A DNA stretch of 64,000 bases from NCBI GenBank assembly GCA_017654855.1, contig CM030332.1, positions 2,666,001 to 2,730,000 on the forward strand, in the 5' to 3' direction. This DNA is from Podospora anserina. Taxonomy: Eukaryota. Both the position numbers and the translations under genes were made by a program. The notes under the pieces are model-generated. The model made no database searches. It had not been told where the DNA came from and saw nothing but the letters and a program-made list of their open reading frames with translations. Below are positions 5,701-64,000 of this stretch, piece by piece (within the stretch, counting starts at the first letter, position 1; each line of letters opens with the position of its first letter).

Positions 5701-5796
5701 AGGAGGATTGGGTGGGTGTTGATTGCCATTTGGTCGGTTAGCACGCTGGTCAATTTGGTGGTTGAGCTTACGGGAGTGTGGGCGGATGTGTCGTGA
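2717..5796 (+). CDS. Cation/Ca2+ exchanger (CaCA superfamily, CCX/YDL206W-like); intron 5398-5465
   Basis: Alpha-1 repeat AGVTFLAFGNGSPDVFSTF and alpha-2 repeat ILGLTVFAVGNSLGDLVAD. Splicing GTAAGT..GCTAAC..CAG gives MALAACFGGPMLNILLG, joining the two ORFs. Confidence 0.93.
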
Positions 5797-6577
5797 AAAA
5801 TTACTTTGGGTGTGATGAGCTATGATTACGATGGAATGAGTTCAACTGGTTTGAGATTGTGGTGGTGGTGGTGGCGGGAAGGGATAGAGACAGGTTACGT
5901 GGCAGGAGAGAGAGGTTCAAACAGCCACAGATGGTAATTTTACCTTTTTTATATTACCTTTTGTATGATGTGGTGGTTTTTTTGGGGCTTGTGAAAGCCA
6001 TGGAGCGCGAGGAATGTTTTTCGGTTGGTTGTTTTGGAAAGGTGTCAAGATGGGAAGGGGAAAGAGAATATATCTGGCTTCAGGAAAGTCTAATTTTGAT
6101 GTTCGAGACGGAACAACCAACAGGTGGTGTACGTACGTTACGTATGTCTATATGAGAATCACAAAGACGGGATGGGATGGATGAGGCTGGGTGTGTTTTG
6201 GAACAGGACAGATATATGGGTTTTGCTGATAGGTGTGTACAGGAAATGTATATGGAGTGTACTTTGTATCTTTCTGGGTTCTGTACACTGCAATATGATG
6301 TGTCGACGACAAGGTTGCTCAGGTGAGACTTACATGGTGGGGTGTGTCCATCAAGGTGTGTGCAAGGTGTGGTGTGGTGTTTGACCCCTGAAAGTCTCAA
6401 GCTCCCTTCGCTCCCGGGAACTTCCCCGCAATTGGTCCAACTGTGGGGTTTTGGTGAGAGCCAGAGCCAGGAGAGAATGAGATGAGGGGCAATCGGACCT
6501 CTCAGAGCTTCCCTGTCTGGCAACGTGGGACTTTTTGTTTTGGGCTAGACTGTTGCTGCTGCTGCTGCCGCGTTGTG

Positions 6578-41098: not shown

Positions 41099-42841
41099 AT
41101 GGGCATGGTAGACTGGGCGTGTTGGGGTAGGGTTGAACCTTGCTAGAAAAAGGTGCCTGGGTTATGGTAGATGGTAGTGATACCGTATATATGGGGGTTT
41201 TACATACGGCTACAACTTACATAGATTGCATTTTCTTGTCCCCTTCACAAAAGTGATCACGTTTTTTCTATTCTCTTATCGACACTGTCTAGTGCTTATG
41301 AACCGGCCTTCCTCCCATCTCGAGAGAAACCATCTTGCATGTGACAGTGCTGGCCTCGATGGGCATTCCTTTGATCCCCAGCCAGCCCAACTTTCTTGTA
41401 TAGACAGGGCCCAACGTTGACATTTTGGCTGCCTTATCGCTTCCACCCAAGTCGTTTGTCGCATATATAAATGTCAAGAATGTCTACCAACTTCAAGTCC
41501 AGCTCAATTGCAGTGGACATCTCCAAGGCGAACAAAACTGGGAGCAATAATGATCCACTGCCGTGCCCAAACAGACTGCAGTGGTGTTTGCTTGCTCTGG
41601 GTTACAACGCGCGACATACCCCGCATGGATACCACGATACCCAATCCTCCAGCAAAAGTCATCCAAGACTATCAGAAAGAGGCAAAAATGCACAAGTGAT
41701 CGACATCGCAATGCGGCATAATAGGTCAGTTGAGCAAAAGTCCAGTCGTCGACAAGCAACTCGCCAAAAGAAGAGGCAACCCAACTTTTTGTCTTCAGCG
41801 ACACACTGTGCGACACGTGTGAAATCGAAAAGGGTCCCGTCCTTTCCGCCCTTTTCTGCAGCAGACGGGAGATCCTATCGACGATGGGGTATCCAAGTCA
41901 AAAAGTAGCGGCAGGCCGCGTATGTACCGACTCAGTACACTCAATATTGTATCCATACACAATACAAGCGGTGAAGAAAATGTTTCCTTCTAGTTTGATA
42001 GGGTATAGCAATCGGAAGCTGGGAATGCAAGACATACCTATACTCTGTAACTTCTGATGGTGACTGATGACACGAATCGGGCATCATTATTCGAGAATCC
42101 AGCAGCAGGACAAATGAAAATGCTGCCCTGTGAAACCCAACGACGCCTCTCGTTACCTTCCCATTCCAAAAAATACGGCCGGGTATTCCTGGCTGACTGA
42201 TCCGGGTTGGTGTTGGTGACTGGTCGTGACCTGCAGGTTGAGTCTGTATCTTGTCCAATCATTGGCCGTGGCGGTCGACGTCGCGGTCCCAGTGTCAGCT
42301 GAAGTCGTCGCGAAAGAAAAAAGAGGAGGGTGGTCCGTGGGGAAAAAAAGCTAGGGAAGGGTCAGCCGCGGGCGCTTGTTTGATTCTGTCCCCACAAGGC
42401 CAAGGGCCAAGCGCTGACAACCTCTCTCGGTTTGCTCCACTTTCTTGGTGAGGGGAGCTTTCAGACCCCGGCCCCAGAGCAGACGAGTTCAGGGTTCGGG
42501 CAGTTCCAGAGCTGGGTTAGCTGCGACCCCCAGCCTCTTGATTGATTGATGGTTCGGATGGAACAATCCATCTCAGATCTCCAAACAACAACACACACCT
42601 GAACCTCCATCTTCCATCCTATCCTTTCCCCAGTCTTTCGTTCCTTACTCTTGATCTTTGAAACCCAGTTGTCGCGATACTCGCTGGGTGTTGACGAAAC
42701 TAATACCAAGGCGCAAATCTGATTTTTTGAAATCAAGTACCCCTTATCGCGTGAAATAAACACAACAAAAAACAACCCACTTCAATGAATGGAACGTGAA
42801 GGAAGTTTGGACGACAGGTTGTTTCTTGAGCTTTCGCCAAA

Positions 42842-45800
42842 ATGATGCGAGAGCCAACGGCCCGTCGCCGGAGCCCAGAGAGCTCCCGGCGGCGACGCGC
42901 CGAGCGTCGGCATTCCAGAGAACAGCTCGCTGCTGCCGCCGCTGTCGCCGCCGGCGTCGTCGCTGCCCAGCCCGCCCCCCTACTACCACAACAACTACCA
43001 CCCGGACCCGAAGTAGGCGACCGCGCAATAATCCCGCCCGTGTCATCATCCCAAACCCACACTCCTACGCAGCACATGACGGCGCTATCTTCGTCCCAGA
43101 CACAAACTCCCACGCAGCACCAATATCACCGATCTAGGGCCGATTCCACCACATCCGCCTCCTCGTCGACCTCTTCGTCGCTGGTGAATGTCTCCCGTCG
43201 AAGCCGATTTGGCATCCGTAACTTCTTTGCCCTGTCATCCGTGAAGAAGGTCAAAAAGCGGCGCTCTTTCAAGAGGAAGAACTATTCGACGTCTTCAGTT
43301 GACAGCGATCTTGCCTACGGCAACGGATATGTGTCGCGGTCGTCCATCGAAAGTACCCATCGCCCATCGCCTTCACAGCACCAACAGATCCCGCAATATC
43401 CACAGCACCACCAGCCATATACCCCGGGGGCTTTCTCCCATGTAAGCGGCGCATATCCAGCACCACCAGGACCCTACTCCCCTCATCACTATAGCCAACA
43501 TGGACACCACCCTGGCCAAGGTTACCCTCCTCCTCTCCCGCATCAATATGGCCAGCCCCATCCGCGACAAGGTCCCAATGTTGGTCCGGACGGTCCTCCG
43601 GTCCTCAAGCGTGTCCAAACCGACGAGGAGATCATCGCCATTGGCAGGAAACTGTCCGACCTCGCCCGTGCTGAGAACCTCCGCGACCTCGAACGCCAGG
43701 GTAAATCTCGTCCTTCCCGTATGGTGGCCACCGCGACAGCTGTCTCTGCTTTCCACCGTAAAAACTCTGGCGGGATTCGCGGCATCAGCTCCTCTCGGCC
43801 AAATAAATCGCAGTCTTCCTCTAGTGATGAAGAATGGGAATCCGCCTCCGACTCCGACTCCGACTCTGATTCTCCCAGCTCTGATTCAGACTCTGGTCTC
43901 GCTTACGGTTCCATGCCTCGTTTTTCGGACCCCATCCTTCCTCCGCTGACAGCTCTAGCCGGGACAGCAGGCGTCATGGGCGCAGCGATTGGAGCCGGTA
44001 GCCTAGCTCCCACCATCATCTCTGAGCGCCCATCTGAAGCCATCCGTCCGCCAGACCGCAAGCCAAGCGCCGTCGATCCAGCAATGTTTGGTCCCGTGAA
44101 CTCTCTCCGGGGATATGTGAATACTCCTTGCGGTTTTAGGCCTGGGGAGTATGTCTCTCCGGTGCAGTCTCAGTATCAGTCTCCCGCACTGGCGCACAGA
44201 GTGACGGCTGAGAACCCGATTCCATTGCCGGGAAGCGCAAGCAATGAAGCTCTGGTGCAAAGGCAGAGACAGCAGCAGCATGGTTTTGATCAGCCTATCA
44301 CTGCGACCAATCTTGGTACCCCAGTGCAAATTCAAGCCCCGCGACCAAGAATTCCCGTCTCGCCTCAGGTGTTGGAAGAGCGAGGTCATCATAGGGAGCA
44401 TGAGATTAGCACGGGCAGTCCGAAGAAGCGCAGAGAGAGGGAGCGAGAGAGAGATAAAGAGAGTAATATCTCAGCAGCTCTTCCGGCTGTCGTGGGTGCT
44501 ATTGGGGCTGCGGTTGTTGCTGGTGCGGTGTTGAATAATAATAAGGACGAGGGGAGGAGGCCCGACGAGAAACGTGATGAGAGGCCACTACGTGATGATG
44601 ATTATGATCGGGAGAGACGCCGCCGTTATGATGATGATGCCAGGCGGAGCACCATTGATATTAATGATAAGAGGGATGAGAGATATAATAGGTAAGCTTC
44701 TTCTGAAGTTGTTTTGTGTCGTCTGTGTGTTTTACGACTTCAGATGAAATAAGGTTGGGCAGAGTGAGTGGTGGCTGACATGTGCTCAGACGCGACTACG
44801 ACCGTCCACCCACGTCAGATGCCACTAGATCGGATGAACGGTATTGTGAGCGTGAGCGTGAGCGTGACCGCCATTACGATACGCCGACTGGTCGCGACCG
44901 GGATGATAATCGCTATTCTCGACGGGAGCCCGAGAGCAAAGGTGGTATTTCCGAGGTCATCACTCCCGCTGTTATCGGTGCCGTGGCTGGTGCCGTGCTC
45001 GCAGCCGGTGCTCGTAGGGATAGCAAGACTTCGCCTGTTCACCGAACCTCGCCCAGCCTGGAGCGTGACGATGGATACAAGGAGCGTATGCGGCTCGAGC
45101 AGGAAGTCAAGCGGCATCGCGAGGACAGTGAACGTCACGCCCGTGAGGAACAGCGCTTGCGCGATGAATACGAGGTCCGCATGAAGGAGATCCGCGAGAA
45201 GGCCGAGGAGGAGGAGCGCCGGGCTAGGGAGGAGAAGAAGAAGCAAGAGTGGATCGAGCAGCAGGAGAGGATCGTCCGGGAGCAACGCAAGATTATCTAT
45301 CAGCAGGAGCGTGTGGCTAATGACGAGCGCGAAAAGGCTGAGCGCGACCGGAGATCCAGAGATGCCAACCAGAAGAGGGAGCGGGAGGAGAAGCGGGCTT
45401 TGGAAGCAAGTGGCGGACGTGAGCCAAGTCGTGATAAAGAGCGATCGCGAGATCGGAGAAAGGACGTGATTGTTGTCGTTGAGGGACGTCCTGATGTTGC
45501 TGACTCGGTTCCTGCCCCTGCTCCTACCCCTGCTCGCTCTGAGGTCAGCAAAGGGAAGGAGCGCGAGGTTGCTCCTCCACCTTCGGCACCTGCCCTCGAT
45601 GAGAAAAAGCCAGCTGGGGCCGACTCTCTGGCTCCTGCTGTCAAGAAGAAGTCCAAGGAGGAAAGGAGGCAAGCAAGGGAAGAGCTCCGCAAGTTGCTTG
45701 CTGAAACTCAGAAACAGATCGAGGCTGAGAAGGAGCGAGCCAGGCGGTTGGCTGAGCTGGAGGCTATTCAGGGTGCCCCTTCTGCCATTACCGTCGAGCC

Positions 45801-48800
45801 ACCTGCCGAATTATCTCGTGGGGAGCCGTCAGGCAGCAGCAGCAGCCGTGCTCCTGCCGTTGTTGACCCTTTCCAGTTCCAAGTCCCGACCGACGCCTTC
45901 CCAACTCCTTCCCATACCCCTCCCACTGATCGACCGTTGACCCCTGCCATTCTCACTGTCGAGCCAGACTGGGATCGCTTGGAGCCCGAGCCAGAAGGGG
46001 AGGTGCGGGAGCGTCTCAGCCGCCGTGAGTCGTATGAACTTGAGATTGCCCGAGCTCAGAAGATCGTTGAGGAAACCAACAAGTCGACTATCCCCGCCGA
46101 TCCTGCCACCATCGCTGCTGCCATTGCCGTCGTCGAGTCTTCCGAGAATGATAGAGAGCGCTCCCGCTCTCGCGCGCCCTCCAGAGGCCGTGACCGTGAG
46201 CCTGTCCGGGATCCTGTCCAGGAGGAAGCCAATCGAGTCTATCGCGAACGCAAGATCGCTGAGAGAATCGCAGGAGAGGAGTCCCGTTCTCGCAGCGTTT
46301 CGCCTTCGCCTTCCATCATGGACAAGTACGAGGATAACGGCGAAGATCCCGTGGTCCGTATCGTCACTCCCCCTGAGATGAAGCGTGCTCCAAAGAAGTC
46401 GGTGTTTGACGGCCCCAACGCTGATGTGAGGATTGACAATGTGATTATGCCTCATGACTTGGTCAAGTACCAGGCTCCTCCCGCGATTCCAGGTGTCAAC
46501 CCGGCCATGATGATGCCCATCTTCAAGTCTAGGGATCCGTCGTGTGAGAGGGAGAGACCGATGCTCATTTTGGTGTTGCCTACTCCTGCAGTATCGCCTA
46601 ACCCGGAAAAGATGATGCGGTCTGTGAGCTCATCTTCCCAGGCGGCGACTGTGGTTGATGCCGAACCGCCCAAGGACAAGGACGAGCCTGCCACCCCTCC
46701 TCGGAGCCCCAAGAAGGAAACAAAAATCATCATGACTCGTCGCGGTGAGGCTGTGGAGGTACCCGATGATTATGACACTGGTCGCGTGAGGGAGTCCCCC
46801 GAGAGCAGAGACGCGTCTCAGGAGAGGAAACCACTGAAGTTCAAGTTCGCGTCTCCGGGCAAGAAGACCAATGCTTGGTCGTCTACGCTGGCGGCTGCTA
46901 TTGCTGGTGCCACTGCTCTTGCTGCGAAGAGGAAAGAGGAAGCCAAGGCCGCGGAGGCTGCCGCGGAGGCTTCTGGTTCCAGGGCGATCGAGGGCGAGAG
47001 TGCTTCGGCAGCTGTTGTTGAAGAGAAGCGAAAGCCGGCCATTGTTACTGCTGAGCCGCCTTCAGAGCCGAGAGAGGTTGTGCCTGAGCGAGAACAAAGA
47101 GATACCTCGCCTGGTCCCGCCATCTCTGAGCCCCCGTCTACCCCACCACAACAGAGGAGGTATGTTCCCATTGATCTGGAAGATGAGACGCCCCCACGGG
47201 TCGGCCCGAAGCCGACATCATCCAGCCCCAGCTTGAGCCGGATGCCGGGCTCTTTCGAGGAAGATCTTGACTTCAACGCCACCGTGGCTGCTGGACTGCA
47301 GGCTTCGGGCTTTGATCCCAACATTGTGATCAAGAACGAAGATTTCCGCCGACGGGACTCCCCTCGCGGCTCAACCCAGCCATTCTATGTACCTCCTTCT
47401 GCCGAGACTGTTACTGATCCAAGTGACTCTAGCCGCCCATCACCTGCTGTTGTCACCGCCGCGCCCACAGAGCTTCCTATTGTACCGGCACAAGCTGAGC
47501 AAGACTTTGATTCTTCCCCCAGGAGGAAGTCCAACTCTTCAGAGGTGTCACGCAGCAGCTCAGGCAGCAAGAAGAGCAACAGGAGAAGCCATATGAGCAC
47601 CAGGAAAGATTATGTCGACATACCAGAGCACGAAGAGCCACCAGACAGGCCAAACGAAGAGGACCTCTCTGGAAGGGTTCCCTCCAACCTATCCAGAGAA
47701 GCTTCTTCATTCCAGGTGGTCGACCAGCCAAAAGAGGAGTCCTTTCGGGTAGTCGAGCGAGGGTTGAGTTCGACTCCGTCTGATCCTGTTGGCCAGACGA
47801 ACGACCAAGCCGACGATGCCAAGCACATCACTGGCAACGCTCAGCAACCCGCAGAGAACAGGGACAAGCAGTCTTTTTTAGCTAGAGCCGGCACCAGTGG
47901 CGACGGTGCCGGCCTGATGGAAGTCCAGGCTTTTGCAAGCCCGTACTCCCATCTCAACGCCGTCCTGCCCTCTTCCATAATTGAAGAGGTATTCAAAGGA
48001 TTAGGGGAAGCCAAAGACACCCAAGAGCCCATCTGGCGCCGTGAGCGAAGCATCAGCTACAGCTCCCAGAAGGTCGACCCTGAAGTCCAGGTGCATCGTG
48101 AGATTAAGCCAGCGATCGATCCCCAGTTTGGAGACCTGCTTCCTCTGCCTCCTAGTGAGCCAAATTCCCCTGACGATCCCAGCTTTTACGAATTGGACGG
48201 CTTCTTCCCTTCCTTGCCGGAGAGTCGCCCTAATACTCCGCCTCAAGAGCAACGGACCCGAAGCGCGACTGTCTCATCTCGCCGTCAGGGTCAGGGTCAT
48301 GTCAGAACTCCCAGTCGAACAGCAGTTCCGTTACCGTTGGTGATGGGCCGGCGATCTGTGCCATCTTCACCTCGGGTTGGAAGATCAAGCCCTGTTCAAG
48401 GTGTGGAGCAGCCGTACTCGCCCCCTAAGAGTAGACAGGCTAGACCAACAAGCTGGGATATGGGGAAGGAGTACAAGCCGTTGTGGTTGATTGAGAAGAA
48501 AGGCGGAGAGGAGAAGAGGGCGCCGAATGTGGTGGACTACCCCGCGCTGCCGGAGAGTGAGAGTGAGCCGCCTTCGAGTGCACCCGAATCTCCTGGCTTT
48601 GATGCTGTAGATCGAGATGAGGATGTCGATGTCGGCTACCTTCAGCGCGGCGGTTTTGGTTTTGCAGGTGCTTCCATTGGAGCGTTGGGAGCGCTCGGTG
48701 CTGGTAGGATTCTACAGGATCAGCTCAAGATTGACGTGCCACTTGCGAGATCATTCGAGCAGCAATCATCTGGGTTCGGATCTGGAGAGACCACGCCCCG

Positions 48801-51800
48801 TGCTTTCGCGGCTGACGAGTTTGCCCAATCTCCTGAGGCTAGGAGGAATGACATTGAAAGCTTGGAACAGATGTCACCTGTTGGATCTGTGCATCTCGAG
48901 AGCCAGTCCACCACGGACAAAGAGGATGACGTTCAAGATCTCGAGCAGCTCTCGCCAGTCGTTGTGCCCTTCAAAGCGCCTGCTAGACAGCTAGCCTTTG
49001 GTGATGAATTGGAGCTCTTGCCTGCGCTACCCGAGAGTTTGCCAAATTCACCTCTCGAAAAGGGCCCGTCACCATCATCTGCACCTTTGGTCTTTGGAGG
49101 ACCTTTGGAGGAGTTGCCTTCTTTGCCAGACTCTCCCATCCAACAATTGGCCAAGGAGGAAGCCTCTGCTTCGATCCTCTCAGAAAGCCGTGCTCTCTCG
49201 CCGCTTCAGGATGCCTCTACTCTGGATGTGCCGGTTGAGACTTTGGAATTGCCGTCTCTTGAGAGCTCCTATGGGACTTCAATTGACGACAAGAACTCAC
49301 CTCACACTCGAGAAGATGGAACCGAACTCTTGCTTGCTTCTAGCGGACCTGCGAGCCCGGTACCCAGCACTATGCCACAAACCACAGAGTCGCCAGAGGT
49401 TGTTGAGTTGCCCGCTCTCCCTGACAGTGCTCCTGCATCTCCTGTTCAAAACGTTTTGCCTGGCCACTTTGAGGAGATGGAGGAGCTGCCACCACTGCCA
49501 GAGAGCCGGGCAGATTCTCCAGTGCATATGGAATTGGCTTCTCCTCCTGTTGCAGTCTTGCCACATGCTGGAGAGTTTGAAGATGCATCTGCGCTGCCAG
49601 CTCTTCCGCAGGAGCAGCCTGGTACTCCTGATCATGAGAGGTTTCCGGCTCTTCCCCGAAGCCGCGCCCCCAGTCCTGTTCCGTCAGCCAATTTACCAGC
49701 TCTTCCTGCTAGCACTCCTGGCTCTCCAGTCATCGACACGCTGCCGGGTCTCCCCGCAAGCAGATCACCAAGTCCCGTTTCTTCAGGCTTGTCAGTTTCC
49801 GATTTACCGCTTCCTGCGGACAATCGTGTTGGTTCACGCAGTTTCTCGGATTTGTCAGTCGTCCCAGAGCGTATGCTTGTTCCTGATGTTTTTGCGGACT
49901 TGCCTGCTCTCCCTGATAGCGAACCTGCTACTCCTGTTCATACAGACCTCCCCGTTCTGTCTGAAACCAAACCTCTCAGCCCGATTGTTACAGCCCAGCC
50001 AACTACCTCGGAAAGCCAGCCTGCCGTTTCGGCCTCGCCCACTCTGCCTGAAAGTCGGTCTGCTACCCCTGTTGTCTCTGACGTTCTAGCTTCTGTAGAA
50101 GACGGACCCGGCAGCCCGGTCTTTGAGGATGTCTCAGTCTTCCCAGACAACAAGCCTCTTAGCCCTGTTCTTTCAGCCTTGCCGCCTCTCCCAGACAGCA
50201 CACCGGAGAGTCCCGTGGTACCGGCTGAAGCTATTGCTGTTGAGGAAGAAGCTGTTGTTGACGATAAAGTCGATCATCTTGACTGCAAATCTGCAGTCGT
50301 TGAAAGCGAACCTAGCAGCCCTGTCAGCTTGACCCAGCAAGTGGTTGCATCGAGCAGGTCTCTTGGTCCTGTGTTCCCAGGCTTGTCTGCCCTTCCCAAG
50401 AGCCGACCTGCCAGTCCTGTTCTCTCGCCACTGCCAGCTCGTCCTGACATCAAACCTGTTGCTCCAGTCCTTTCGGCTACGCCCAATTTTGCGGAAAGCA
50501 GACCGGCAAGCCTTGCTCCATCGTTTACGCCGCGTCCCCGCTCTGGTAGTCATTTCTTCACTACTCTCTTCTCCCTGCCTGTTCTATCAGGCGTGCAATC
50601 TCTTTCAAAAAGCCGTCCTTCGTCTCCTCTTCAGAAACCAAGCTTGGCTAATGAGACTCTTGAAGAAATCCCCGCACTGCCACTTTCTGAAAGTGGGCCG
50701 GTCTCTCCCATCGAAGACTTGTCAAAGTCGCTGGCGGAGGCGCTCGAAAAGGTTTCAGAGTCGCGCTTTGAGGCAGAGAGCCGACCCGAGTCCCCTGTGG
50801 AGTTGGCAAAGTCTCCTGTCCAGACCTTTGAAGACGTTTCTCAACTCCCAGCTCTGCCTGACAGTCAGCCCGAATCTCCGCTCGTGTTGGCAGAATTGTC
50901 TGCTCGGACCGTCTTAGATGCCTCACCAACTCTCCCCCCCTCTGAAAGCCGGTCTATCTCCCCTCATCCAAAGCCTGTAGATTTTTCAGATCTGCCAGCC
51001 TTACCTGAAAGTCTGCCTATGTCTCCTGTTCTGGAACATCTGCCAGTGCTCGGCAATTCTCAGCCAGCCACGGAGGACCTTGTTGATTCAAATCCCGCCG
51101 TAGTGTCGAAGGAGACTCCAACTCTTCCCGAAAGCCGCCCTCCCTCGCCTCTCCACGACGTTGAGCTTCCCACTCTTTCAGAGAGTCGTCCTGATTCGCC
51201 AATCGTTGATACATTGCAGCAGCAATCTTCTCCTGTTTTCACGCCTGTTGTCCCACGGGGACTAGAGTCTCTGCCAGCCCTGCCCGAGAGCGAGTTGAAT
51301 TCTCCAGTTCTTGAGCCTGTCCTTTCCCAGGGGCACGAGTCTTTGCCCGCTCTTCCTGAGAGTACGCCAATTTCCCCTGTTGTTGAGCCGACCTTGGCTC
51401 AAGCGCCAGAAGTACTGCCAGCACTATCCGAGAGTAAGTCAATCCCACCTGCTGCAGAATCTATTCTTAACCCGTAATTAGATGCTCTTCCAGCCCCTTC
51501 AGACAGTCTACCGGCCTCTCCTCTGCTTGAGGTTCTCCCTATTTCGGAACTCGACTCTCTACCAGCCTTACCGGAAAGCAAGCCGGGATCCCCTATTGTC
51601 GAGTCTGTTACTACTCATGAGCTAGCGTCTCTCCCTGTTGATTCTGGGGACACGTCAACTTCTCTTGCTCCTGAGCCCGTTCGTGCCACAGAACCAGAGA
51701 GCTTCTCCACGCTTTCTGAGACGGCATCACCTTCCCCTATTCAGCATCCCATGGTTCGCCAGCTTCCTGATGAGATCCTCAACAATCTACCAGCTCTTCC

Positions 51801-54800
51801 CGAGAGCCCGCTTGCTTCTCCGGTTGAACGGCCTGTAGAGCTCCAGAGCCTCGAGGCTTTGCCGCTCCCTGAAAGCCAGCCAGCCTCTGCCATCCAAGTT
51901 TCTGCCTCCAGCAAACATCACGAGTATAACTTGGATCAGTTGCCTGCTCTTCCCGAGTCTCGTCAGGATTCACCTCTACTCGAGCCCGTTCTGTCTGAGC
52001 ACCAGGAGATTCTGCCTGCAGTTCCCTTGGGCGTGTCTTCATCACCCGTTCATGTCCCTGTGCCACGCCAGTTCCCTCAAGACGACACAGATGAGCTACC
52101 GGCTCTTCCTGATTCTCAACCTGTCTCACCTGCCTATGCTCCCATCTCACGTCAGTTCCCTGATGAGTTTGCGGACAGTTTGCCTGCTCTTTCTAAGACC
52201 CAGCCAACGTCATCTGCTCAGGATAGCCTCTCAAGCCAGATTCAAGAGGCGCCTTTGGACACGCTGCCTGCTCTGCCGGAAAGCCAGCCAATGTCTCCTG
52301 TTCAAGATGCCTTCCCTGCTTTGCCTGGCAGCCGTTCTCCTTCGCCTTCTCAGCTGGCCCTGCCTCAGTTGGTCGATGCGCGCGATGAACCTTTGGTCAA
52401 TACGCCTGCCCTTCCCGTCAGACACTCATTTTTTCCGATCGAGGTTTCTGAACCTCGCCAACTTCCCAGCTTGGATTTTGACAGCTTGCCCGCTCTGCCT
52501 GAAAGCCAGCCAACCACCCCTGTGGAGGATTCTGGTTCAACTCAGCTTCATGGCCAAGATTTTAGCGACCTTCCAACTTTTCCCGATAGTCTGCCTGTAT
52601 CGCCTGCTCAGACCTCTGCTCCTCAGCTACCAGCCCAAGATCTGGACAACTTGCCGTCTCTTCCTGAAAGCCGACCAGGCAGTCCTACTGTCCGGTCCAT
52701 GCCCGCACCTGGTGATGCTCGACCATTGTCTCCTGTTCAAGCCCCTATTGAACAGGTGTTCAATGAAGGCGTTGAGACTCTGCCAGCCCTTCTGGATAGT
52801 CGGCCCGTGTCCCCCCTCGAAACTACGGCTGAGGCCGCTGTGGAGATCCCTGTGGAAGCTCCTGTCGAGGCTGCTGCTGATACGTTCTTTGATGCTCTTG
52901 AGACTCCTGATGAAGTTGCTGAGCATGAGCCTCCGGAGGAAGATTTTAAGAACTTGCCAGCTCTTCCCGAAAGTCCGCCAACTTCCCCTGTTCCAGACCT
53001 TGCTTCGCCTCAACTGCCCCGCCAAGAATCAGATGACTTGTCAGCTCTTCCCGAAAGCCGATCTGTGTCTCGCAATCAAGACCTTGAGGATTTGCCAGTT
53101 CTCTCAGAAAGCCAGCCCATGTCACCGACACAAGCTCCAGCTACACCTGAGTTGCCCAAAGAAGACTTGGATCAGTTACCAGCTCTTCCTGACAGCCCCT
53201 TCTTGTCGTCCGCTGAGGCTGCACAAGTACAACTCGATGTAGTCGAGGTAAACCTGGCCGATCTGCCAGCTCTTCCTCAGAGTCGCGCTTCTTCACCTGT
53301 ACACAAGCCTGTTCTGCCGCTTATCGTCACGGACTTGGAGAAAGCAGAAACTGTACCGTCGCCCAGATCAACTGGCAGGGAAATCGCGGGGGTGCAAGAG
53401 CAAGACTTCGCGACACTTTCTCAAGTCACAGATGGCAACGATGCACAGATTTATGAGCCTCCGTCATCTTATTCCGATGTCAAGACGCCACCGAGCCCCA
53501 TTACAAGGCGCGCACTTGAGAAGGAGAAGGAACTGGATGATTTCGACAAAGGCAAGTCGGTTTTTGTGGATACTGCCGCTGCTGCCGGCCCTGCCAGCAC
53601 TCTTGTTGTTGCCAACATGCGCCAGAACGGTTCTCAGCCAGACATCCAACGTCTGGGCTCTGAAATGCAGATTCCTCCCAGCCAAGAGAAGAGCGAGAGT
53701 GTCTATTCGTTCAATGAGGATGGAACATCTACCGTCGCTGCGTCTGAAGCACCTACTTACCTTTCTGGGTCAACTTTCTACGAATCTCAGCTGTCTGAGC
53801 CGACCAAGAAGAAAGACTCTCCTCGCCAAACTTTCAGTTCGCTTCTTGGGCTCTGGAGCAAGCGTGAAAAGACCCAGCCAGAACCGCCTGCTGTTTCCAA
53901 GGTCGTGGCTAAGGTGGTTCCTGCTACAACGCCTGAGGAGGAAATGTCTGAGGATGGTTTGGTTCCCAGTCCGACAAAGAAAGACAAGAAGAAGAAGAAA
54001 CAGAGGAAGGGTGAAAAGGAGGGGAGTGAGAGTGGGAGTGGATCTCAGCAAGAGCAACAGAGAGGCGAATCGTCCGGCGGTCTCAACATTCTTTCGAGCA
54101 ACCAGTCGACCAACGACCAGCCCGCATCGTCCATAGTCAATAAACCTGTTGTTTCTCGCTACCTGCCGGACGACGAACCGTCGCCTTCTCCTGACCAACA
54201 ACATGATGAACCGAGCCATGACGCTGACGTTGCTCCTGAAACCGAGGAATTCCCGGTTCCTGACGAAATACTCCCTGCTGAAGAAGTCCCTGCTACCGAG
54301 GAACCACCCACTCCCGGCAAAAAGTCCAAGAAGAAAAAGAAGAAGGCTAAGAAGGCTGCAGCCGAAGCTGCAGATGTGGCTGAAGAGGAGGCTGCTCTCG
54401 AGGCTCCACCGCCAGAACAGGACATTGCGGCTGAGAACGTGGCTTCAGCAGAAACGCAAGCTCCGAGCAGCGGTGAGCTTGATGATTCTGCAAAGGATCA
54501 GGGCCCTGGTCCTCAGCCTTCGGTCAGAGATGATGTGGATGATGTTGAACCTGCCGAGAAAGAGGAGCATATTGCAGCTGCACCGTCAAGGTCAGGTTCA
54601 ATCTCAAGCCCTACCACGCCAACTTTGACCAGAGATATCACGAAGAAGGGCATTCTGTCTATGCTGCCGGCTGTTTCCCCCTTTCGTACCGGATTTTGGG
54701 GCATCAAGAAGCAGGAACCGGCCACGCAGACAATTCTCGAAGAAGGCCCTGAACTCCAAAGTCAGCAAACAGAACAGGGGCTGGGTCTAGGCGAGTCTAG

Positions 54801-57800
54801 CGACCGTTCCATTGAAGTGGGGCCTGCAGAAGACGTGCATAAGCCTGAAGCCAAGGAGGAATTAGGGTTGAATACGGCTAGCCTTGCGCTAGACACCGCT
54901 GTTTCTCTTGTTGAGAGCCCTATCCTGGTCCAAGACGAGGCAAAGATTGAGCATGAGGCAACAAAAGAGTTGTCGGATGAGAGACAAGAACTGGTCGAGG
55001 CTGAGGTTGTCGATGTTGATGTTGATGACAAGGAAGAGAGCAAGGACACCGTGCGGAATGACGAAAAGGAAAGCACGTCGCGTGTTGTTGATGAGCCAGT
55101 CGTTGCCCACGAGCCAGTCCAGGATGTCTTAGTACCGGAGATCACAGCAGCAGCGTCTGAAGATGTTGTTCAGGAGGAGGCTGTTGATGAGCCTTTGCCC
55201 ACTACGGCTTCTGAGAATGTGGAGGTGGTTGAGCCTGCGACAAAGAAGAACAAAAAGAAGAAGAAAAAGAAGAAGGCCGCCGCTACAGCTACTGAGAACC
55301 TGGAGACATCTAACGCCACTCATGCTACTGAACAGTCAGTCTCGGAACTGGTCCCAGAGCCATCTGCCTCTTCAGGCCAAGTAGAGGAGGCCCTCACTGA
55401 GACTGCTCCTGCTGAGGAAGTTGCCCTCGCCGAAGATATCGCCGTTCTTTCCGAAGTGACCCCTACTGCTGAGGCAGTACCTCCCAAGGAGATTGCCGCT
55501 GCCCCTGAAGCTGCCCCGGCCCAAGTCAAAGAGATTCCCGCGTCTACAACAACCAGCAGTAAGAAGTCCAAAAAGAAAAAGAAGAAAAAGAACGCTTCCC
55601 AATCGACTGAAAATCTTACTACAGTCCCCATTGTCGAAGAGCCACCCGTCCAGGATACCACTGTTCAGCACCCGTCCACGGACCCGGAGCCCGAGACCAA
55701 GCAAATCCCTGAGGATGCTGCCACCATTTCGATTTCTACGGACGACGAGCTGCAAAAGGACGCAGACGATTCTCTCATAGACAAACAGGAGCCCAAGAGC
55801 ATGGAGCAGCCCCTCGAGGAGCACAATATTCCCGGACAGGTCAGTCGAGACTCAAGCGAGCAACCCAACATTAGCCATGGCAGCGACAGTACAACACCAA
55901 GAGGTGAGGACGACAATAAACCACACCAGACCGAGGCCCATCCCGTTTCTGAGGTTTTTTCATCATCGTTTTCACCAGCACAGTTGCCAGAAAAGAGCGT
56001 CCAGAACAACCAGGAGACGGTGGAATCTGCACTCAATGAGATTTCCAGCGATCGACAAGATGGTGTTCCTGTTACTATTCCCCATGATTTACTACTCCCT
56101 GACAATAATGATGCTGCTGTACAAGACGTCTCCAAGGAAGAACCAGGCTTTGACACGATTTCTTTGCAACAGGAACAGGACCTCCCCACCGCGCCACCGT
56201 TGACGACCGAAGCCACTCCGGAGCTGGAGCCGGTCATTAAGGAGGAGACTGACACTGGTGATGGCCTCGCCGAGACAAAGTCAACACATGACGTCAAGTC
56301 CGGCATCGGTAAGCTCTATATTGCCCCGTCAGAACACAAACACACTATGATGCATCAGATGAACTAATCATTTTTCATATTCAGTCGAACGAGGTTTCAC
56401 CGCCCCGCTCGTGGCTGCAGACAGTACCATTGAGGCCTTGACAGGTGGTGCATCTGGAAGGACTGCCGTTACCCAGTCAGAACCAATCGCTATTGAGGAG
56501 GCTGCAGCACTTGTACCGCTGCCGGAAGAGGTTGAATCTGATTTTCCCACTGATACTACAAGGGCAGAAGAGGAGAAGAGTAAGGAACACTAGAATTGAA
56601 TACAAGAACATCATTTAGACTGACATTGACCCAGCACCGCCAATTGATGAAGACAAGGCCGCCTCATCCGTCGCCCAAGGCGAGGTTCAACAACGGCCTG
56701 AAGAAGGTCGGGCTGAAACACCTGCAGTACCTGCAGCAACTCCCCTGCAAGAACAACAACAATTGGGTGACATCGCTGTACCTCCCCCACAACAACCGCA
56801 TTTGCAGCAACAAGAGAACTCGTTTCAGGCACTACAGCCAATCCCAACAGCGGCTTCCCCCATTGATGCTACACAACTGCATGAATTGAGGCTCGCCTCT
56901 TCCCCAATCGGTGCCAGGCCTCGCTCGGTCAGCTTCACCCTGGAAGCGATCAGCCCTGGCGCCTATACCCCCACGAGCAGCGGTGCCATGTCTCCTGTAA
57001 CGGAGCACGAGTCGGAGGATGCATCTGGTCCTTCGTCACGTTACACTCTCCGGAGCAAGAAGAGAGAGAAGCGGAAGAAGTCTACTGCCCTGAAAGCTGT
57101 TGCTAGCCCTACGGATGAGGAACATGGATGGCTCAAAACAAACAAGCCAGCCTCGTTGGGGTTGGTTGACTCTCCTAAGCAACAGGCGTCTCCTTCCCAG
57201 GAGAGCTTTGATCATCAGCTTGGCACGGTAGCGGAGGAGACTACTTCTGCTATTGAAAATGATGCTGATAGCATTAGCGATGCAAGGTCGGTGCTGTCGT
57301 TGGCTTTGGGGAAGAGGGCGGAGACGCCGTCGGAGTTTGGGGGAAGTATGGCTGATTCGGAGGGGACTGTTGGTGAGAAAAATGAGGAAGCTGGGCCTTC
57401 AGTGATGAATGGACTTTTGCTTGCGACAAGGTTGAAGAGGGTGGCGGGACGGTTCAGGGAGAGGAGGGAGAAGGCGGCAGCGAAGAAGAAGAGCGGGATT
57501 GCTTGGCCTAGCAGTGAGCAGGAGGAGAAGCAGAATGTGGAAGAGGAGGTTGGGAAGGAAGATGGTGAGAATCCCTTTTCTTTTGTATTATCGGATGAGA
57601 GTTGAAAAAATAAGAGAAGGGATTGAGACTAATACATGTGTAGAAGTGATGGTTGAGGTAGCTGCACCTGACAGTCGATCTTGGGAAGTAAAGGAAAATG
57701 TTGAAGAACAAGCAGTTGCGACTGATGCCCCTTACCAGCAGGCAGAGCAGACTACTCAGGAAAAGGGAGTTGCTCTTGGAACCCCTCTATCTCAGCTCAC

Positions 57801-60800
57801 GGAGCAGCTTGCGCAAAAACAAGCTTCGGAACAACAGGAGGCAGTGGAGCAGGAAACGACCACTGCTGTTGTTCCTAGGGACCTTTCGCCCATTCCTGAG
57901 GAGAGCGCTTCTGAGCCTGAGACTGTCGCTGCTGAGGAGTCTGTTGTTGATGACTCGACTCCTGTGGAAGATACCACCCTTACTGCCGAGTTTACAACTG
58001 CGGAGGAGGTTTCTGCTCTCCCGGAGCAAGTTTCAAACGAGGAGTCCGCTGTCGAGCCTACAAAGACAAGGGAGCTCGAGGTTGCTCCCGAGCAAATACT
58101 TCCCATCGCAGAGCCTGTCAGCGCTTCAGATGAGGCTGCGGTTGAGCAATCCCCTCTTGTTTTGGGGGCTATTCAAGAGGAGCAGATCGAGGAAGAGGAG
58201 TCTGTGGCTGCTCTTGAGCCAACTGCTGAGCCCGTTGCCGAAGAGGCCCAGGTTGAGGTTGTTGAAGAGATTGCTCCGGTCGACAAAGCTCCTGCCGAAG
58301 AACCCGCTGTGGCCGAGGCTGAACACCGCGCAACGGAAGATCCCGCCACTGCTATTGCTGAGCCTTTGCTCGAGACCGCTGTTGCTGCTCCAGAGAGTCT
58401 TGTTGAACCTGAAGTCCCTGTTCGGGTTGAACTGCCAGTTGCCGATATTGGAGAGCCAGCTCCCACTTTTGAAAAGCCATCGACTGTTCCAGAGGAGATC
58501 ATCGCTCCTTCGGTTGAAGGGGTCACTCCAGCTGTCGAAGTCAACATTCCTGCGCTTGAACAGAGCATCATCAAGCTTGATGACAGCACTCCTGAAACTC
58601 AGGACCAAGAATCAGTCGTTGGCCGCAATATCTCTTTGGATGCAGAGCCACAGCTTGAGCCCGAGGTCGTTCCACTTACGCAAGAGGCGGAGTTGTCAAT
58701 AAGTGAGCCTGAGCTCACTCCTGCCATCCAGATCGCTCCCGAAGCCCAGCTAGAACCCGCCAGCGCCGAGGTTGTGGAAGATGTCCCAGAGCAATCTCCC
58801 GCCGCTATCAAGCTCGAAGCTGAAGTCGGCTCTGCCGTTACCGAACATGAGCAACTCCAACACCGTATAGATGAGCTGACGGAGGCGATGTCAATTCCAT
58901 TGCCAGTAGAGGTCGAGGACAGTTCAGATCTTGTTCCAGTTGCTGAGCCTGAGCAACGACAACCTGAGTTCGATGAATTTGCGGAGGCTATCTCAATCCC
59001 ATTGCCAGAAGACCTCGAGTCAATCTCTGAACCTACTCTGGTTGCTGAAGTTGAGCAACCGCGACTTCAACAAGATGAATTGGCGGAGGCTTTGACAACT
59101 CCGTTGCCAGATGAGGCTGAAGAGATCTTTGATCTTACTCCAGTTGCTGAATTCGAGCAAGCGCAAGTTCGACTGGATATATGGGCGGAGGCTTTGACTG
59201 TTCCACTGCCTGAAGACTCCAAGTCAAAGGTTGAGGTCGAGGCTGATACTCCCCCAGTGATGGCTTCTGATGACGTTCGGGCTGTTGCTGTCGTTGAGAA
59301 GACTGCCCCGGTCGCGGTTGAAGAGCTAATTCCCACTGTCGATGAGTCAGCTCCTGTTGTTGAAGAGCCAATTTTTATCAGCGAGTCTGAGCAAGCTGTT
59401 GATGTCACGCCCACTCCTGCTGAAACGTCTGTTGAGGAAAAATCTCCCCTGCCGGAGAAGTCTGTCTCGGTCGCTGAAGACATTGCGCCCGCTTCGGAAG
59501 AGCCAATCAATCTTCTTACTGCCGATGAAGAGTCTGCTCCAAAGCCAGACTTTGATAGGGAGCTCGCCTTCGCCGCTGAGATTGCTCTTCCAGAGGCCAC
59601 AGCTGACGAGATCGAACTGCCTGCTACACCACCCGGACAACTCTCAGTCGACCAGGATCTCGTTTGGGCAACTGAGACCCCTCTGCCAGAAGACACAGCT
59701 GATGAAGTCGAACTACCTGTTACCCCCGTAGAAGAGCTCTCGGGGGGTCAAGGTTTCGCTTTGGCAGCGGCAACCCCTCTTCCAGATGTCACCGAGGATG
59801 AACTGGACCTGGTGCCTACACCAACTATAGAGTGCTCTGTGAATCAGGATCTCGCTTTAGCAACTGAAACTCCCTTTCCAGAAGTCACAGAGGATGAACT
59901 CGAACCAGTTTCTGTGCCAGCAGTTGACTCAGTCCCAGTGCACGAAGAGATTTATACTTTTCGCGAGGTTCTTGCACCAGAGACTAAGGAGATCGCTCTT
60001 CCTACTGTTGAAGAGCTGATCTCCACTGTTGTCGAAGAGGCTGCTCCTGCTACTATCGAGGAGTCAGTGACAGTCTTGGCTGAAGAGTCTCGGTCTGAGG
60101 TTCAACCTGTGGCCACTGTCGAGACAGTTGAAGGGCCTTTGGAAGTTTCTGAGATGCCCGTCGTTGAGGAGCCGGTCGTTCAAGGGCCTGTCCTTGAGAA
60201 GGTTATCGTCGAAGAGGTTGTTGAGGAAGGACCTGCAGCTATTGAGAAGCCTGTTGCTATGGCTGAAGAGTCTGCGGCTGCCGTTGATGAGCCTGCTGTT
60301 GTCGTCAAAGAGATGCCAGTCCCTGAGGAGGCTGTCGCTACTGTCGAAGAACCCAAAGTTAACATCCAGGAACCCGCCATTGTTGAAGAACCCGCCGTTG
60401 CCAGAGAAGTTCCGGATTCTGAACAGGTTTTGATCCCCGAAGCCACCAATATGGACGAAGAGGTTCTCGTTCCCGAGGAAGAAGTCCCGGTGGAATCGCC
60501 AAGTCTCCCTGTCGTCGAGACAGCTCCTGAGGAACCTGCTTCAACTCCAGCCCCTGTGATCGAAGAGACATTCGAGTTGCCAGCCAAGAAGAAGAAGGGT
60601 GAGAAGAAGAAGAAGAAGAAGGCCGCAGAGAATGAAGCTGAGATTCTAGGTGTTGCATCTTCAGCTAGCATCGAGGAGTCGACGCCAACAGTACCGGATC
60701 TGACTGTTGAGCCGACAATTGAGGAGCCGACAATCGAGGAGCCGACAATTGAGGAAACTATGATCGAAGAATCAACACCCGAAGAACCGACAATCGAGGG

Positions 60801-63800
60801 GCCCTCTGTTACAACGCATGAGTCCGTTGAGCCCGTCATTGCCACTCCAGCGGTCGAAGAGGCCATCGTTCTAGCATCTCAACAGTCTACGGCACGCGGA
60901 CTACCATTACTCGAATATGTCCCTGAGCCTATCGAGCCATCGGTTCCAGCAATCCAAGAGGTAACGAAGCCATCCAAAAAGTCCAGGAAGAAGAAGAAGA
61001 AGGGTTCCAAAGCCGGTAGTTCCGAGCCTACTTCTACCATTGCAACGCCTTCCCAGGAATTCAGCAATCCTCTTGAGCCCACAGTCGAAGAGCCCTTTCT
61101 TATGCCCAAGTCACAGGATGAACCCACCGAACCAATGACTGTCAATGAGCCAAAGTCTTTTTTATCCGAGGCAACGGCTGTACCGCTTCCGGAGTCCGAC
61201 ACAGAGGATGAGCCAATCCCCGCTCCTGAGCCAGAGGTCACCAAGCCTTCTCCAGTGATCGAGGAGTTCGATGCTTCTGACGCTGCTCTGTCGGAGCTTC
61301 CGAAGGCTCTCGATGTCGAAGGTGAGCCTGCGACCTTGACAGCCCAGCAACCCAAGGCTTTCGAGGCAGTTGGTATTCCCGAGGAGACCACGCCCATTGT
61401 TAAAGAACCAGCCTCAGAAGCACTTGTTCCTGAGCCATCAACAGACAAGCATTCAGTGGGCGCTGTTGAAATTGAGCCTGCGCAAGAGGTGATTCGGCAA
61501 CAATCCAAAGCTGAACAACTCCCTGTTGCTGCTTCGCAGCCCGAGGTGATTGATGGACCAGTTTTGGAGAAGCAAACCATTGAGGCAAACGCTCTTGTTG
61601 TCGACCCCGTTCAAGAGCTGAGTCAAGATCGCTCATTGGAAATTTCAAACAACACTCCTTCTTCACCCACACTCGACCTGGAAGTTGAGATGCAGACGGA
61701 AACTTTGCCTGACGTTGAACCACCTACCGTCGCCGCTTCTCCGGCCGAGTCTATCGAGCTGGTTCCGCTTGCCCCTGAGGAGCTTGTTCAAGAACCCAGT
61801 CAAGACCATTCTTTGGACATTTCCCAGACTTCTGAAATCGAGGATGCCCCCCTTGCTGTTCCTCAACCTGATACTACTGAGGAGCAAGCCAGTCCTGTCG
61901 TCGAAGAGATCGTTAATTTGCCAACTCAGCTTGGGGTTGCGATATCTTCTCGCAGCATTCCACAGACCGAGCAAGAGGTCGAGGTTCCTGCCGTGGCTGA
62001 GCCTACTCTTATCGAGGATCCTCTTGAGACATCTGACAAGGCCGAGATCGCCCCTTCCATCGACTCTCCCGTCTCGATTGAGGAGCAGTCTATTCCGCCT
62101 GAGACAGCTGAGCGCAGCGTTGCTCTTTCAGAAGAACCGATCACCGAATTCAGGCAAATTTCAGCCGAGCAGCAAGATGAAGTCTTCGTGCTCCCTGTCG
62201 TCGAGTCCAAGAAGCAAAAGAGAAAGAAGAATAAGAAGAAGGGCAAGAAAATCGAGGTTGAGAAACAGCCTGAGTCTTCTTCTGAGGTCACGCCTGCTCC
62301 TGGGCCCTCTTCTGGGACTACACTGGAGCGTGCTCTAGAGCCTACTTCTGATCTTGTCATTGCTCCAGCTGCGGAGTCCACCCCTGAGATTTCTGTTCAG
62401 CTTGTCAAGGACCCTTTCGACGACCCTGTCCAAGAGCCTACCACAGCCCTCGAGGTCGCTCCTGTCCACTCGACTAGAGAAGCTGAAGTCGCTGAAAAGC
62501 CAATCGATCGCCAGCTTCCTGTTGAAGAGCCACTTATTCAGCAACCCGAGTCTAAAGTTGGAGACTTTGGTGATGAAGAATTCTTCCCCTTGCCAACAAA
62601 AAAGTCAAAGAAGAACAAGAAGGGAAAGAATGTCCCCGCGGTGATCGACGATCATGACGGCGGCTCTGGTGTCACTACGCCGCTGATCATCGAGGAGCAG
62701 AAGCATGCACTTTTTGCTGCTCCTGAAGCTCACACTCCTCTAGTTGAAAAGGCGTCAAATGGTTCTCCAGATGAGGCAATTCTTGTGGAGGAACGCGGCT
62801 CTGCTGTTGGTGGTGCTTCGATTGAGGAATCTCCGGTTCCTGAAGAGACGCCAGTCACCGAGACACCTACCGTGGAAGTTTCGGTTGTTGAGACTTCTGA
62901 CGAGGAGACACCCTCTGTCGAAGACGCTCCAATCGTTGAAGTTGAAATTCTAGACGCCGAGACGGCTCCTGTGGTGGAGGTGGACGTTGTCGAGGAGATT
63001 CCCACTGTGGAGCAGGAGCCTGTGTATACAGAGGTTCAAGAGCCTATTGTTATCAACATGGAGGAAGAGCCCATCACCATCGCTTTGCCCAAGCCTATCA
63101 GCAGACCACAGACACCCGACATGCTCACTCGCGAGGCTGAGGTGACGCCTCTTCCTCCCAGCAGACCACAGACTCCCGTTCTTGAGAAGGTGGCTGTTCC
63201 TTTGCCCTCAACTCCCGCCAGTCAACAACAGGCCGGCAATCATACCGTTGTAACTCCCGCGCCTGTCACTAGAGACTTGGGCTTGCTTCCTGAGATCTCT
63301 TTACTTCCGCCAATTAGCCTTGAGAGAACACCCCCGCGGAGTGTCAAAGAGCAAGTCGATCTCACTCCCGCTCAAGAAAGCAGCCACATTTCGCATGATC
63401 CACCGTTCGAGTACGAAGGACGGCGCAAAAAGGTCAAGACAGTGGAGGCAGAGCAAGTTGAACTTGATGAGCCTGCTGAACCCGCCGGTGCTGAGGTTGA
63501 TGAGAGCTCTAACAAGGGGAAGAACAAGGAGGAGGCTGTTGTTGCGGCGACCGCACTTGCAGGTGGCGTTTCGTTGTTCGACAAGTTAAAGGAGAAGGAG
63601 AAGGAGGAGTGGAGAGTGATGGGGGATGCAAATATCAGTGTGTTGACTTCAGGTTGGGACGATATGGGGTCTGTGCTGGGTGGTGCACCGGTTTATGAGG
63701 AGTATGACGAGAAGGGAAAGAAAGTGGTTGGGAGCTTGTACGATGAGGAAGATGAAGATAAAGTTGAAAAGAAGGCAAGGAGATCATGGAAGACTGAGGC

Positions 63801-64000
63801 TGGACTGGGGAGGATGGATTCAGAGACGATTCCCAGGTCAGTTAGGGAGTTGTCCAAGGCGAAGACAGAGGATACATCAGAGAGGGGGAGGAAGATGGAG
63901 CGTGGGAAGAGCTCGCCGTCGCCAGAGCCTGTGCAGCGGTCGTTCTCTTTCCCGGATGATATTGCTGATGAGGAGGCATTCGAGACACGCGATACCACGG
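42842..64000 (+). CDS. lah: Giant Leashin-like Woronin-body tether ('involucrin-repeat' protein), 3'-partial. Exons 42842-44691, 44790-56308 (contains TAA 51475-51477, possibly removed by intron 51434-51481), 56385-56579, 56635-57564, 57644->64000
   Basis: Four GT-AG introns with branch sites join the ORFs in frame. The last exon has no reported stop in frame to the window end. Motif islands I associate with Leashin: TDEEIIAIGRKLSDLAR, VDPAMFGPVNSLRG, DPFQFQV, MPGSFEEDLDF..AAGL..SGFDPNIVI, DPQFGDLLPLPPS, RPTSWD, RSFSFPDDIADEE. Also acidic Pro/Glu-rich repeats and poly-Lys stretches. Identity is by recall, not search. Confidence 0.8.
48538..53300 (+). repeat. Degenerate coding repeat array, consensus about LPALPES-x-P-x-SP, dozens of copies
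   Basis: Visible in translation: LPALPESLPNSP, LPALPDSAPASP, LPALPDSEPATP, LPALPESRQDSP, LPALPESQPMSP and many others. Confidence 0.92.
58870..59900 (+). repeat. Second coding repeat family (D/E-x-x-x-A-x-x-x-PLP-E), about 8 copies
   Basis: DELTEAMSIPLP, DEFAEAISIPLP, DELAEALTTPLP, DIWAEALTVPLP, ELAFAAEIALP, DLVWATETPLP, FALAAATPLP, DLALATETPFP. Confidence 0.8.
60709..60800 (+). repeat. 15-nt tandem minisatellite encoding EEPTI
   Basis: gagccgacaattgag / gagccgacaatcgag / gagccgacaattgag plus degenerate copies. Confidence 0.85.

Follow-up and report, generated by a model that had tools for sequence, protein, structure and literature searches.

A spliced intron with an in-frame stop codon, probably derived from a coding repeat, in a Leashin-type gene of Podospora anserina

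How can a giant repeat protein be encoded by a reading frame that is interrupted by a stop codon? This question is raised by a Leashin-type gene on the forward strand of Podospora anserina contig CM030332.1 (NCBI GenBank assembly GCA_017654855.1), which lies in the 64,000-nucleotide (nt) stretch from position 2,666,001 to 2,730,000 that was analyzed here; the whole stretch is referred to as the window, and all positions are given in its coordinates. Two open reading frames (ORFs), 44779..51477 and 51478..56367, share one frame. As a preliminary description made from the sequence alone had recognized, the TAA codon at 51475-51477 that separates them is the sole internal stop in the 11.6 kb of this frame (44779-56367), the other stop being the terminal TAA at 56365. 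That description placed the codon in a 48-nt intron-like segment (51434-51481) and proposed either a young intron recruited from an exon or a regulated switch in the length of the encoded tether. As shown below, the segment is a genuine, spliced U2-type spliceosomal intron, which is referred to as intron 2.

Splicing of the stop-containing segment

Intron 2 begins with the donor GTAAGT (51434-51439) and ends with the acceptor TAG (51479-51481), presenting the GT at the 5' end and the AG at the 3' end of U2-type introns. A predicted branch site, as is also characteristic of such introns, is located close upstream of the acceptor: the branch-like CTTAAC at 51466-51471 deviates by one base from the CTRAY consensus and is not caught by a strict CTRAY filter. 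Its candidate branch A is located 11 nt from the 3' end of the intron, a spacing that is also read from the sequences of introns 1, 6, and 7 of the gene. A rereading of the sequence confirmed the positions of donor, branch-like motif, stop codon, and acceptor as first described. GTAAGT occurs at an ordinary frequency in the whole window (12 matches on both strands, with 12.2 expected) and only once on the forward strand of 42000-64000. Translation of the splice forms bore out two further predictions, namely that removal of the 48 nt keeps the frame (codons GAG-A|AT-GCT, yielding E-N-A) and that retention of the segment ends the protein after 2845 residues. No Rfam match at E <= 1 was obtained in 50500-52500 on either strand and the predicted RNA fold of 51414-51501 is ordinary (z -0.42), which indicates that no structured RNA explains this site.

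Splicing was assessed in public sequencing runs, which were scored by the share of sampled words of 50000-53000 that they contain. At least half of the words are held by 20 of the 24 listed runs; 14 of these 20, from four studies, hold a share of 1.00 and are DNA-like, and the remaining six, from five studies, hold 0.94 and were labeled "RNA?". The region 42500-62000 was examined in one DNA-like run (X5) and in three of the six runs with a share of 0.94 (X15, X18, and X20, from three studies; the RNA runs in the following).

A joint at 51433^51482, which skips 48 nt with GT..AG ends, is present in one long contig of each of the three RNA runs, with 255 letters on its shorter side. The junction that the preliminary description had proposed as a check of its reading was thus observed in every RNA run examined. 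The joint is missing from X5, in which a single 51-kb contig spans 42500-62000 (19.5 kb) and contains the 48 nt, with 0 differences from the window, although this run may be related to the source of the window. The contigs with the joint also lose 44692-44789, 55559-55624, 56309-56384, 56580-56634, and 57565-57643, none of which is lost in X5. Because these other introns are missing too, the contigs must derive from spliced RNA, and the missing introns provide an internal positive control.

Contig depth is consistent with this removal. In each of the three RNA runs, depth in the bin 50963-51613 drops by 48/651 (25.6 to 23.7, 44.2 to 41.0, and 29.2 to 27.1), which corresponds to zero contig cover inside 51434-51481. 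No contig retaining intron 2 was found in the assemblies of the three RNA runs. The 269-nt intron at 55904-56172 is spliced in all three and is also represented by an unspliced X20 contig (55875-56200), which indicates that these assemblies can keep two forms when both are abundant. Intron 2 is removed efficiently in the RNA sampled, and the TAA is therefore not translated in the main messenger RNA. It is important to note the practical consequence: gene models of this locus must remove 51434-51481, as a protein of about 7000 residues would otherwise be wrongly truncated at residue 2845.

Relation of intron 2 to the coding repeats

Leashins (LAH) tether Woronin bodies, which they bind through WSC and whose inheritance or positioning depends on them, and a conserved C-terminal region serves as their anchor at the septal pore. 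The window gene is assigned to the Leashin-type giants from its repeats, size, and architecture. Published Leashin proteins are described as comprising 5936-7480 residues, in which the two ends are conserved and the middle, acidic and repeat-containing, is poorly conserved and rich in P, E, L, and S; the core of the R1 repeat of Neurospora crassa is given as LPVDEDLDLLPALPES (PMC2690989). Likewise, the protein encoded in the window exceeds 6912 residues, is still open at the window end, and has a repeat middle, with 27 copies of the motif LPALPESxPxSP that often follow xLDx; by eye, the units ELDSLPALPES, NLDQLPALPES, and DFDSLPALPES fit the published LPVDEDLDLLPALPES consensus. No Pfam family was detected in the three gene segments scanned. 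An exhaustive search of protein representatives returned two matches, P0017 and P0018 (346 residues, E 1.7e-06), of which only P0017 was usable. P0017 is a hypothetical or "Involucrin repeat" protein of 7593 residues from Triangularia (Podospora) setosa that is collinear with the window gene; 4605 of 6522 pairs in a global alignment are identical (70.6%), and the window ends opposite residue 6815 of P0017. A search with exon 1 retrieved 16 Sordariales relatives (1242-2864 residues, 33-47% identity); in seven of these more distant proteins, inspected by eye, the repeat regions are much shorter and not alignable at the site of intron 2, so these proteins offer no help in dating it. Protein word-index searches around the junction gave no match among proteins of 1973-6281 or 3326-5000 residues. 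The gene is intact and encodes a full-length protein of more than 6900 residues.

Around intron 2, the repeats form a local tandem array on the forward strand of six 72-nt (24-codon) units (51265..51696), which align without gaps at a mean column identity of 70%. Unit 3 occupies 51409-51480, and intron 2 reaches from base 26 of this unit to one base beyond its end, such that the intron equals the last two-thirds of one unit, or the last 16 of its 24 codons. The donor falls within a motif copy, LPALSE|SKSIPP, whose E-S-K-S residues are part of the LPALPESxPxSP pattern; the DNA at this point, GAGAGTAAGTCA, differs by two bases from GAGAGTACGCCA in the preceding unit. The acceptor is positioned at the L-D with which the following unit (*LDALPAPSDSLPASP) starts, and that unit scores 18.7 bits against a profile of the other units.

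To what extent does the intron still resemble coding repeat DNA? Its 47 aligned bases have a mean identity of 0.48 to the five neighboring coding units, and the units are 0.46-0.53 identical among themselves. Unrelated exon positions, used as a control, gave an identity of 0.254 +/- 0.05, with a fraction of 0.0003 reaching the observed value, and none of 5000 shuffles did so. Identity that far above the control indicates that intron 2 is homologous to coding repeat DNA. Homology to coding sequence, as expected of an intronized exon, is found here both with the paralogous units and with the protein model of the T. setosa orthologue. At the same time, the unit carries marks of decay. Motif positions 7-12, which are encoded by the intron, score 1.7 bits in the window, in the bottom 6% of 32 units when the scoring is anchored only on the first six, exon-encoded residues, and the GC content of intron 2 (0.417) is among the lowest 1% of 48-nt exon windows. 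Judged from these sequence comparisons, intron 2 is very probably derived from a coding repeat. The segment remains readable as a coding repeat of this gene, and the coding state is apparently kept in the sister genus.

In the T. setosa model, the corresponding 16 codons are translated as part of a normal repeat and align without a gap, with SKSVSPIVGLILTQEI opposite SKSIPPAAESILNP*L of the window. Opposite the TAA of the window, T. setosa has E (GAA or GAG). This residue lends no support to the change of CAA to TAA by repeat-induced point mutation (RIP) that the preliminary description had suggested; if E is ancestral, the stop codon arose by a G>T transversion. At motif positions 7-12, the T. 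setosa unit scores 10.2 bits, which is the median score of the 37 units in that protein. From these differences we infer a coding state in T. setosa and a decay in the lineage of the window.

Proposed origin and alternative explanations

The locus is best explained by a real intron 2 in a Leashin-type gene that is exon-derived and of lineage-specific origin, a statement that, taken as a whole, we put forward with moderate confidence. Of the initial proposal that a young intron was recruited from an exon, the reality of the intron, with its junction in all three RNA runs, and its derivation from a coding repeat are upheld; its young, lineage-specific character is plausible. A simple model would suggest that one repeat unit was made spliceable by a few point changes and that the unit then decayed, acquiring a stop codon, a degenerate motif, and a low GC content. 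These events would have taken place in the lineage of the window after, or more fully than in, that of T. setosa. A unit of a disordered, elastic linker would thereby have become dispensable, and the stop codon would now be irrelevant to the protein. Splicing probably came first, in the form of an optional in-frame intron like the 66-nt intron 3 of the same gene (55559-55624), with the TAA arriving later as a tolerated passenger. We favor this order because the gene holds that open and conserved in-frame intron and because N. crassa leashin has six in-frame introns.

A more specific version of this origin would have the intron newborn. Changes of the type GAGAGTACGCCA to GAGAGTAAGTCA would have created a perfect donor after the split from T. 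setosa, followed by loss of the unit from the protein and gain of the stop. Together with the still-open intron 3 and the frame-shifting alternative intron 4, the locus would display the whole continuum from exon to intron, and possibly a state that preceded the lah-1/lah-2 split. We regard this version as tentative and somewhat doubtful. If it were true, the locus would provide a natural and genetically tractable case of stop-associated intronization. Unspliced transcripts of the gene would be candidates for nonsense-mediated decay. More generally, introns may arise preferentially in long, disordered repeat linkers, in which a unit can be lost without harm, and cases of this kind constitute raw material for testing how exons give rise to introns.

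Other explanations of the interrupted frame fare differently against these data. An error of sequencing or assembly at a true sense codon, which the preliminary description had named as an outcome that would undo its reading, has nothing in its favor and is excluded by the X5 contig with its 19.5 kb of unchanged sequence (subject to the possible relation of that run to the source of the window), and the complete set of sampled words of 50000-53000 is held by the 14 DNA-like runs from four studies. A plain nonsense allele or decaying pseudogene, with splice-like signals that occur by chance and a truncated protein as the only product, has nothing in its favor beyond the stop codon in the DNA. 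Such an allele is at odds with the exact junction in RNA contigs from three studies, with a frame that contains no other stop in 11.6 kb, and with an ORF that stays open and collinear with its 7593-residue relative up to the window end (70.6% over 6522 pairs). The exact RNA junction and the unchanged DNA contig together exclude both explanations, the probability of either being negligible; for the nonsense allele, this holds unless splicing fails in the strain of the window but not in that of the RNA runs. In a regulated length switch, retention of intron 2 would yield a 2845-residue N-terminal Leashin devoid of the C-terminal anchor, and splicing would yield the full tether. Retention would end translation at that point, contigs can hide minor forms, and the three RNA runs may not represent conditions that favor retention. 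However, a retained contig is lacking from all three runs, the dip in depth matches the intron length exactly, and the same assemblies kept both forms of the 269-nt intron. Furthermore, the stop of a retained transcript would be followed by more than 12 kb of ORF and by several introns, which makes such a transcript a typical target of nonsense-mediated decay. With no retained form assembled in the three RNA runs, the switch to a product of about 2845 residues proposed in the preliminary description is unsupported, and we consider it highly improbable.

The remaining alternative is an old, shared or optional in-frame intron that T. setosa and other Podosporaceae likewise splice out, in which case the T. 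setosa model would read through it only because the frame is open there, and the TAA would be a late and harmless change in an established intron. The T. setosa model treats intron 3, which is removed in each of the RNA runs examined, as coding sequence and is therefore untrustworthy for open in-frame introns; by the same token, its annotation cannot show that splicing is absent at intron 2. In-frame introns are also typical of the gene family, as six of seven new introns described for N. crassa leashin are in frame (PMC2690989). On the other hand, the T. setosa unit is well formed, with a score at the median of its 37 units, which would be unexpected for a sequence long free of coding constraint. 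Moreover, the distant orthologues P0001-P0007 have no repeat array that can be aligned by eye at this site, which indicates that intron 2 cannot predate the array. An old intron thus appears unlikely, but it is the alternative to be taken most seriously.

Besides the unreliability of the T. setosa model, several points weigh against a lineage-specific, exon-derived intron 2 as proposed here. T. setosa was compared through its protein model only, and the identity of the segment to that model (7 of 17 residues) is low but not an outlier, falling in the 12th-16th percentile, which is not significant. By chance alone, a stretch of 16 codons would lack a stop in about 46% of cases. As the paralogous units are only about 50% identical, the lack of extra divergence in the intron has little power. 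With regard to splicing, the "RNA?" labels are guesses, and the RNA nature of the runs was deduced from the missing introns. All runs were compared as assembled contigs, from which rare variants are lost and in which low-level retention may be hidden. The strain behind the RNA runs has 3 differences from the window in 19.5 kb, and the sequence of its intron 2, including the TAA, is not directly visible there. Two metagenome scans for the DNA of relatives gave 386 pattern matches, none of which was confirmed, and 0 matches in the second scan.

Intron 2 shares features with systems described previously. In N. crassa, reverse transcription-polymerase chain reaction (RT-PCR) of leashin revealed seven new introns, six of which are in frame with predicted exons, and splicing of intron 10 changes the frame and yields the C-terminus of LAH-1 (Ng et al. 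2009, PMC2690989). The window gene is a member of this family and has a linker of the same type, built of PELS-rich LPALPES repeats; its intron 2 (48 nt), its intron 3 (66 nt), and a 333-nt variant are in frame, and its 269-nt intron 4 is frame-changing. In contrast to the N. crassa gene as reported, splicing of intron 4 adds only about 22 new codons here instead of a 2607-bp alternative exon. Similarly, the window contains an in-frame intron that bears a stop and is repeat-derived, neither of which is stated for the in-frame introns of N. crassa in the accessible text of that report (PMC2690989).

In the intronization model, as outlined by Catania & Lynch (2008, PMC2586383), new introns are short, have a length divisible by three (3n), carry an in-frame stop, and occupy parts of the protein that matter little for its structure. 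Intron 2, with its 48 nt, its TAA, and its location in a disordered repeat linker where paralogues and the model of a relative keep the segment as coding, closely resembles this description. It differs in the order of events, since the model has the stop first and splicing as a rescue, whereas splicing first is favored here. Intronization cases have been reported in fission yeast (Zhu & Niu 2013, PMC3629103). In-frame leashin introns and stop-bearing intronized introns have thus both been described before, and intronization is, according to these sources, an established idea with fungal cases. What intron 2 adds is a verified splice, a clear origin from a repeat unit, and an internal stop. As judged by titles and the openings of abstracts, the literature mentioning leashin and Podospora contains nothing on the structure of this gene.

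Exitrons are exon-internal, alternatively spliced, 3n, stop-free introns known from the plant and animal literature. Intron 2 is likewise internal to an apparent coding exon, has a 3n length, and is coding-like. Exitrons are free of stops and occur in both forms, but intron 2 contains an in-frame TAA, and the assemblies of the three RNA runs, whose contigs may hide rare forms, hold no retained form. From its sequence, the 66-nt, open, and conserved intron 3 looks like a much better fit to the exitron definition than intron 2.

Gene structure and downstream introns

Exon 1 (42842..44691) starts with the ATG at 42842 and comprises 616 codons plus 2 bases; the encoded N-terminus is nearly identical to that of T. 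setosa P0017. It is followed by the frame-breaking, 98-nt intron 1 (44692..44789, GTAAGC..CAG), whose joint is present in X15, X18, and X20 and absent from X5, and with whose spliced form P0017 is collinear. This joint was reported as 44689^44788, and the cut was read 2 places to the right. Exon 2 (44790..51433, 6644 nt) encodes the conserved N-terminal region and the beginning of the LPALPESxPxSP array; exon 3 (51482..55558, 4077 nt), beyond intron 2, encodes the remaining array and an acidic, K-rich linker. Intron 3 (55559..55624, 66 nt, GTAAGA..CAG) is in frame, stop-free, and reads SKKSKKKKKKKNASQSTENLTTV, with its joint in all three RNA runs. It is followed by the alternative intron 4 (55904..56172, 269 nt, GTGAGG..CAG), for which a joint in all three RNA runs was reported as 55901^56171 and again read 2 places to the right; an in-frame variant of 333 nt (55840..56172) was found in X15 only. 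Intron 5 (56309..56384, 76 nt, GTAAGC..CAG), intron 6 (56580..56634, 55 nt, GTAAGG..CAG), and intron 7 (57565..57643, 79 nt, GTGAGA..TAG) also have joints in the RNA runs. The last exon in the window (57644..63999) is open to the window end, where the gene runs off. All of these features are on the forward strand.

This structure corrects the preliminary description in two respects. What had been taken for an 11.5-kb exon is in fact several exons, as the RNA contigs also drop 55559-55624 and, optionally, 55904-56172. Intron 2 had further been set apart from the other introns for translating like a repeat spacer, which is wrong, since the 66-nt and 269-nt introns of the same gene also read protein-like and open. 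The TAA at 56365-56367 that closes the raw ORF 51478..56367 is located in intron 5, within a CTAAT branch-like motif. The codon hence does not terminate the gene, and the ORF goes on into 57436..63999.

The residues encoded by intron 3 are identical to P0017 at 19 of 23 positions, and the P0017 model keeps them as coding. For intron 4, the segment is identical to T. setosa P0017 at 76 of 90 residues, above the 70.6% average, and this high identity indicates that it is coding in the long form of the protein. The splice form with intron 4 retained comprises 6912 residues to the window end and is still open, and removal of the 269 nt changes the frame, such that a stop at 56238-40 is reached after 4305 residues. 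In this analysis, the short form is reminiscent of the Neurospora LAH-1, and intron 4 recalls intron 10 of N. crassa leashin as described in the report cited above. Located 4.4 kb downstream, intron 4 is a better candidate for a tether-length switch than intron 2.

At three positions (44466 A>G, 50082 C>T, and 50716 G>T), every one of the RNA runs carries, at full depth, a base other than that of the window. At 44466, the RNA strain has AGT (S), the same residue as T. setosa, and the window has AAT (N). These differences look like strain variation and not RNA editing. False "joints" or loose ends between 54327-54346 and 60602-60622 were seen in all four runs, including the DNA run X5; they are a low-complexity artefact of short K-rich coding stretches of the AAGAAGAA type and do not reflect splicing.

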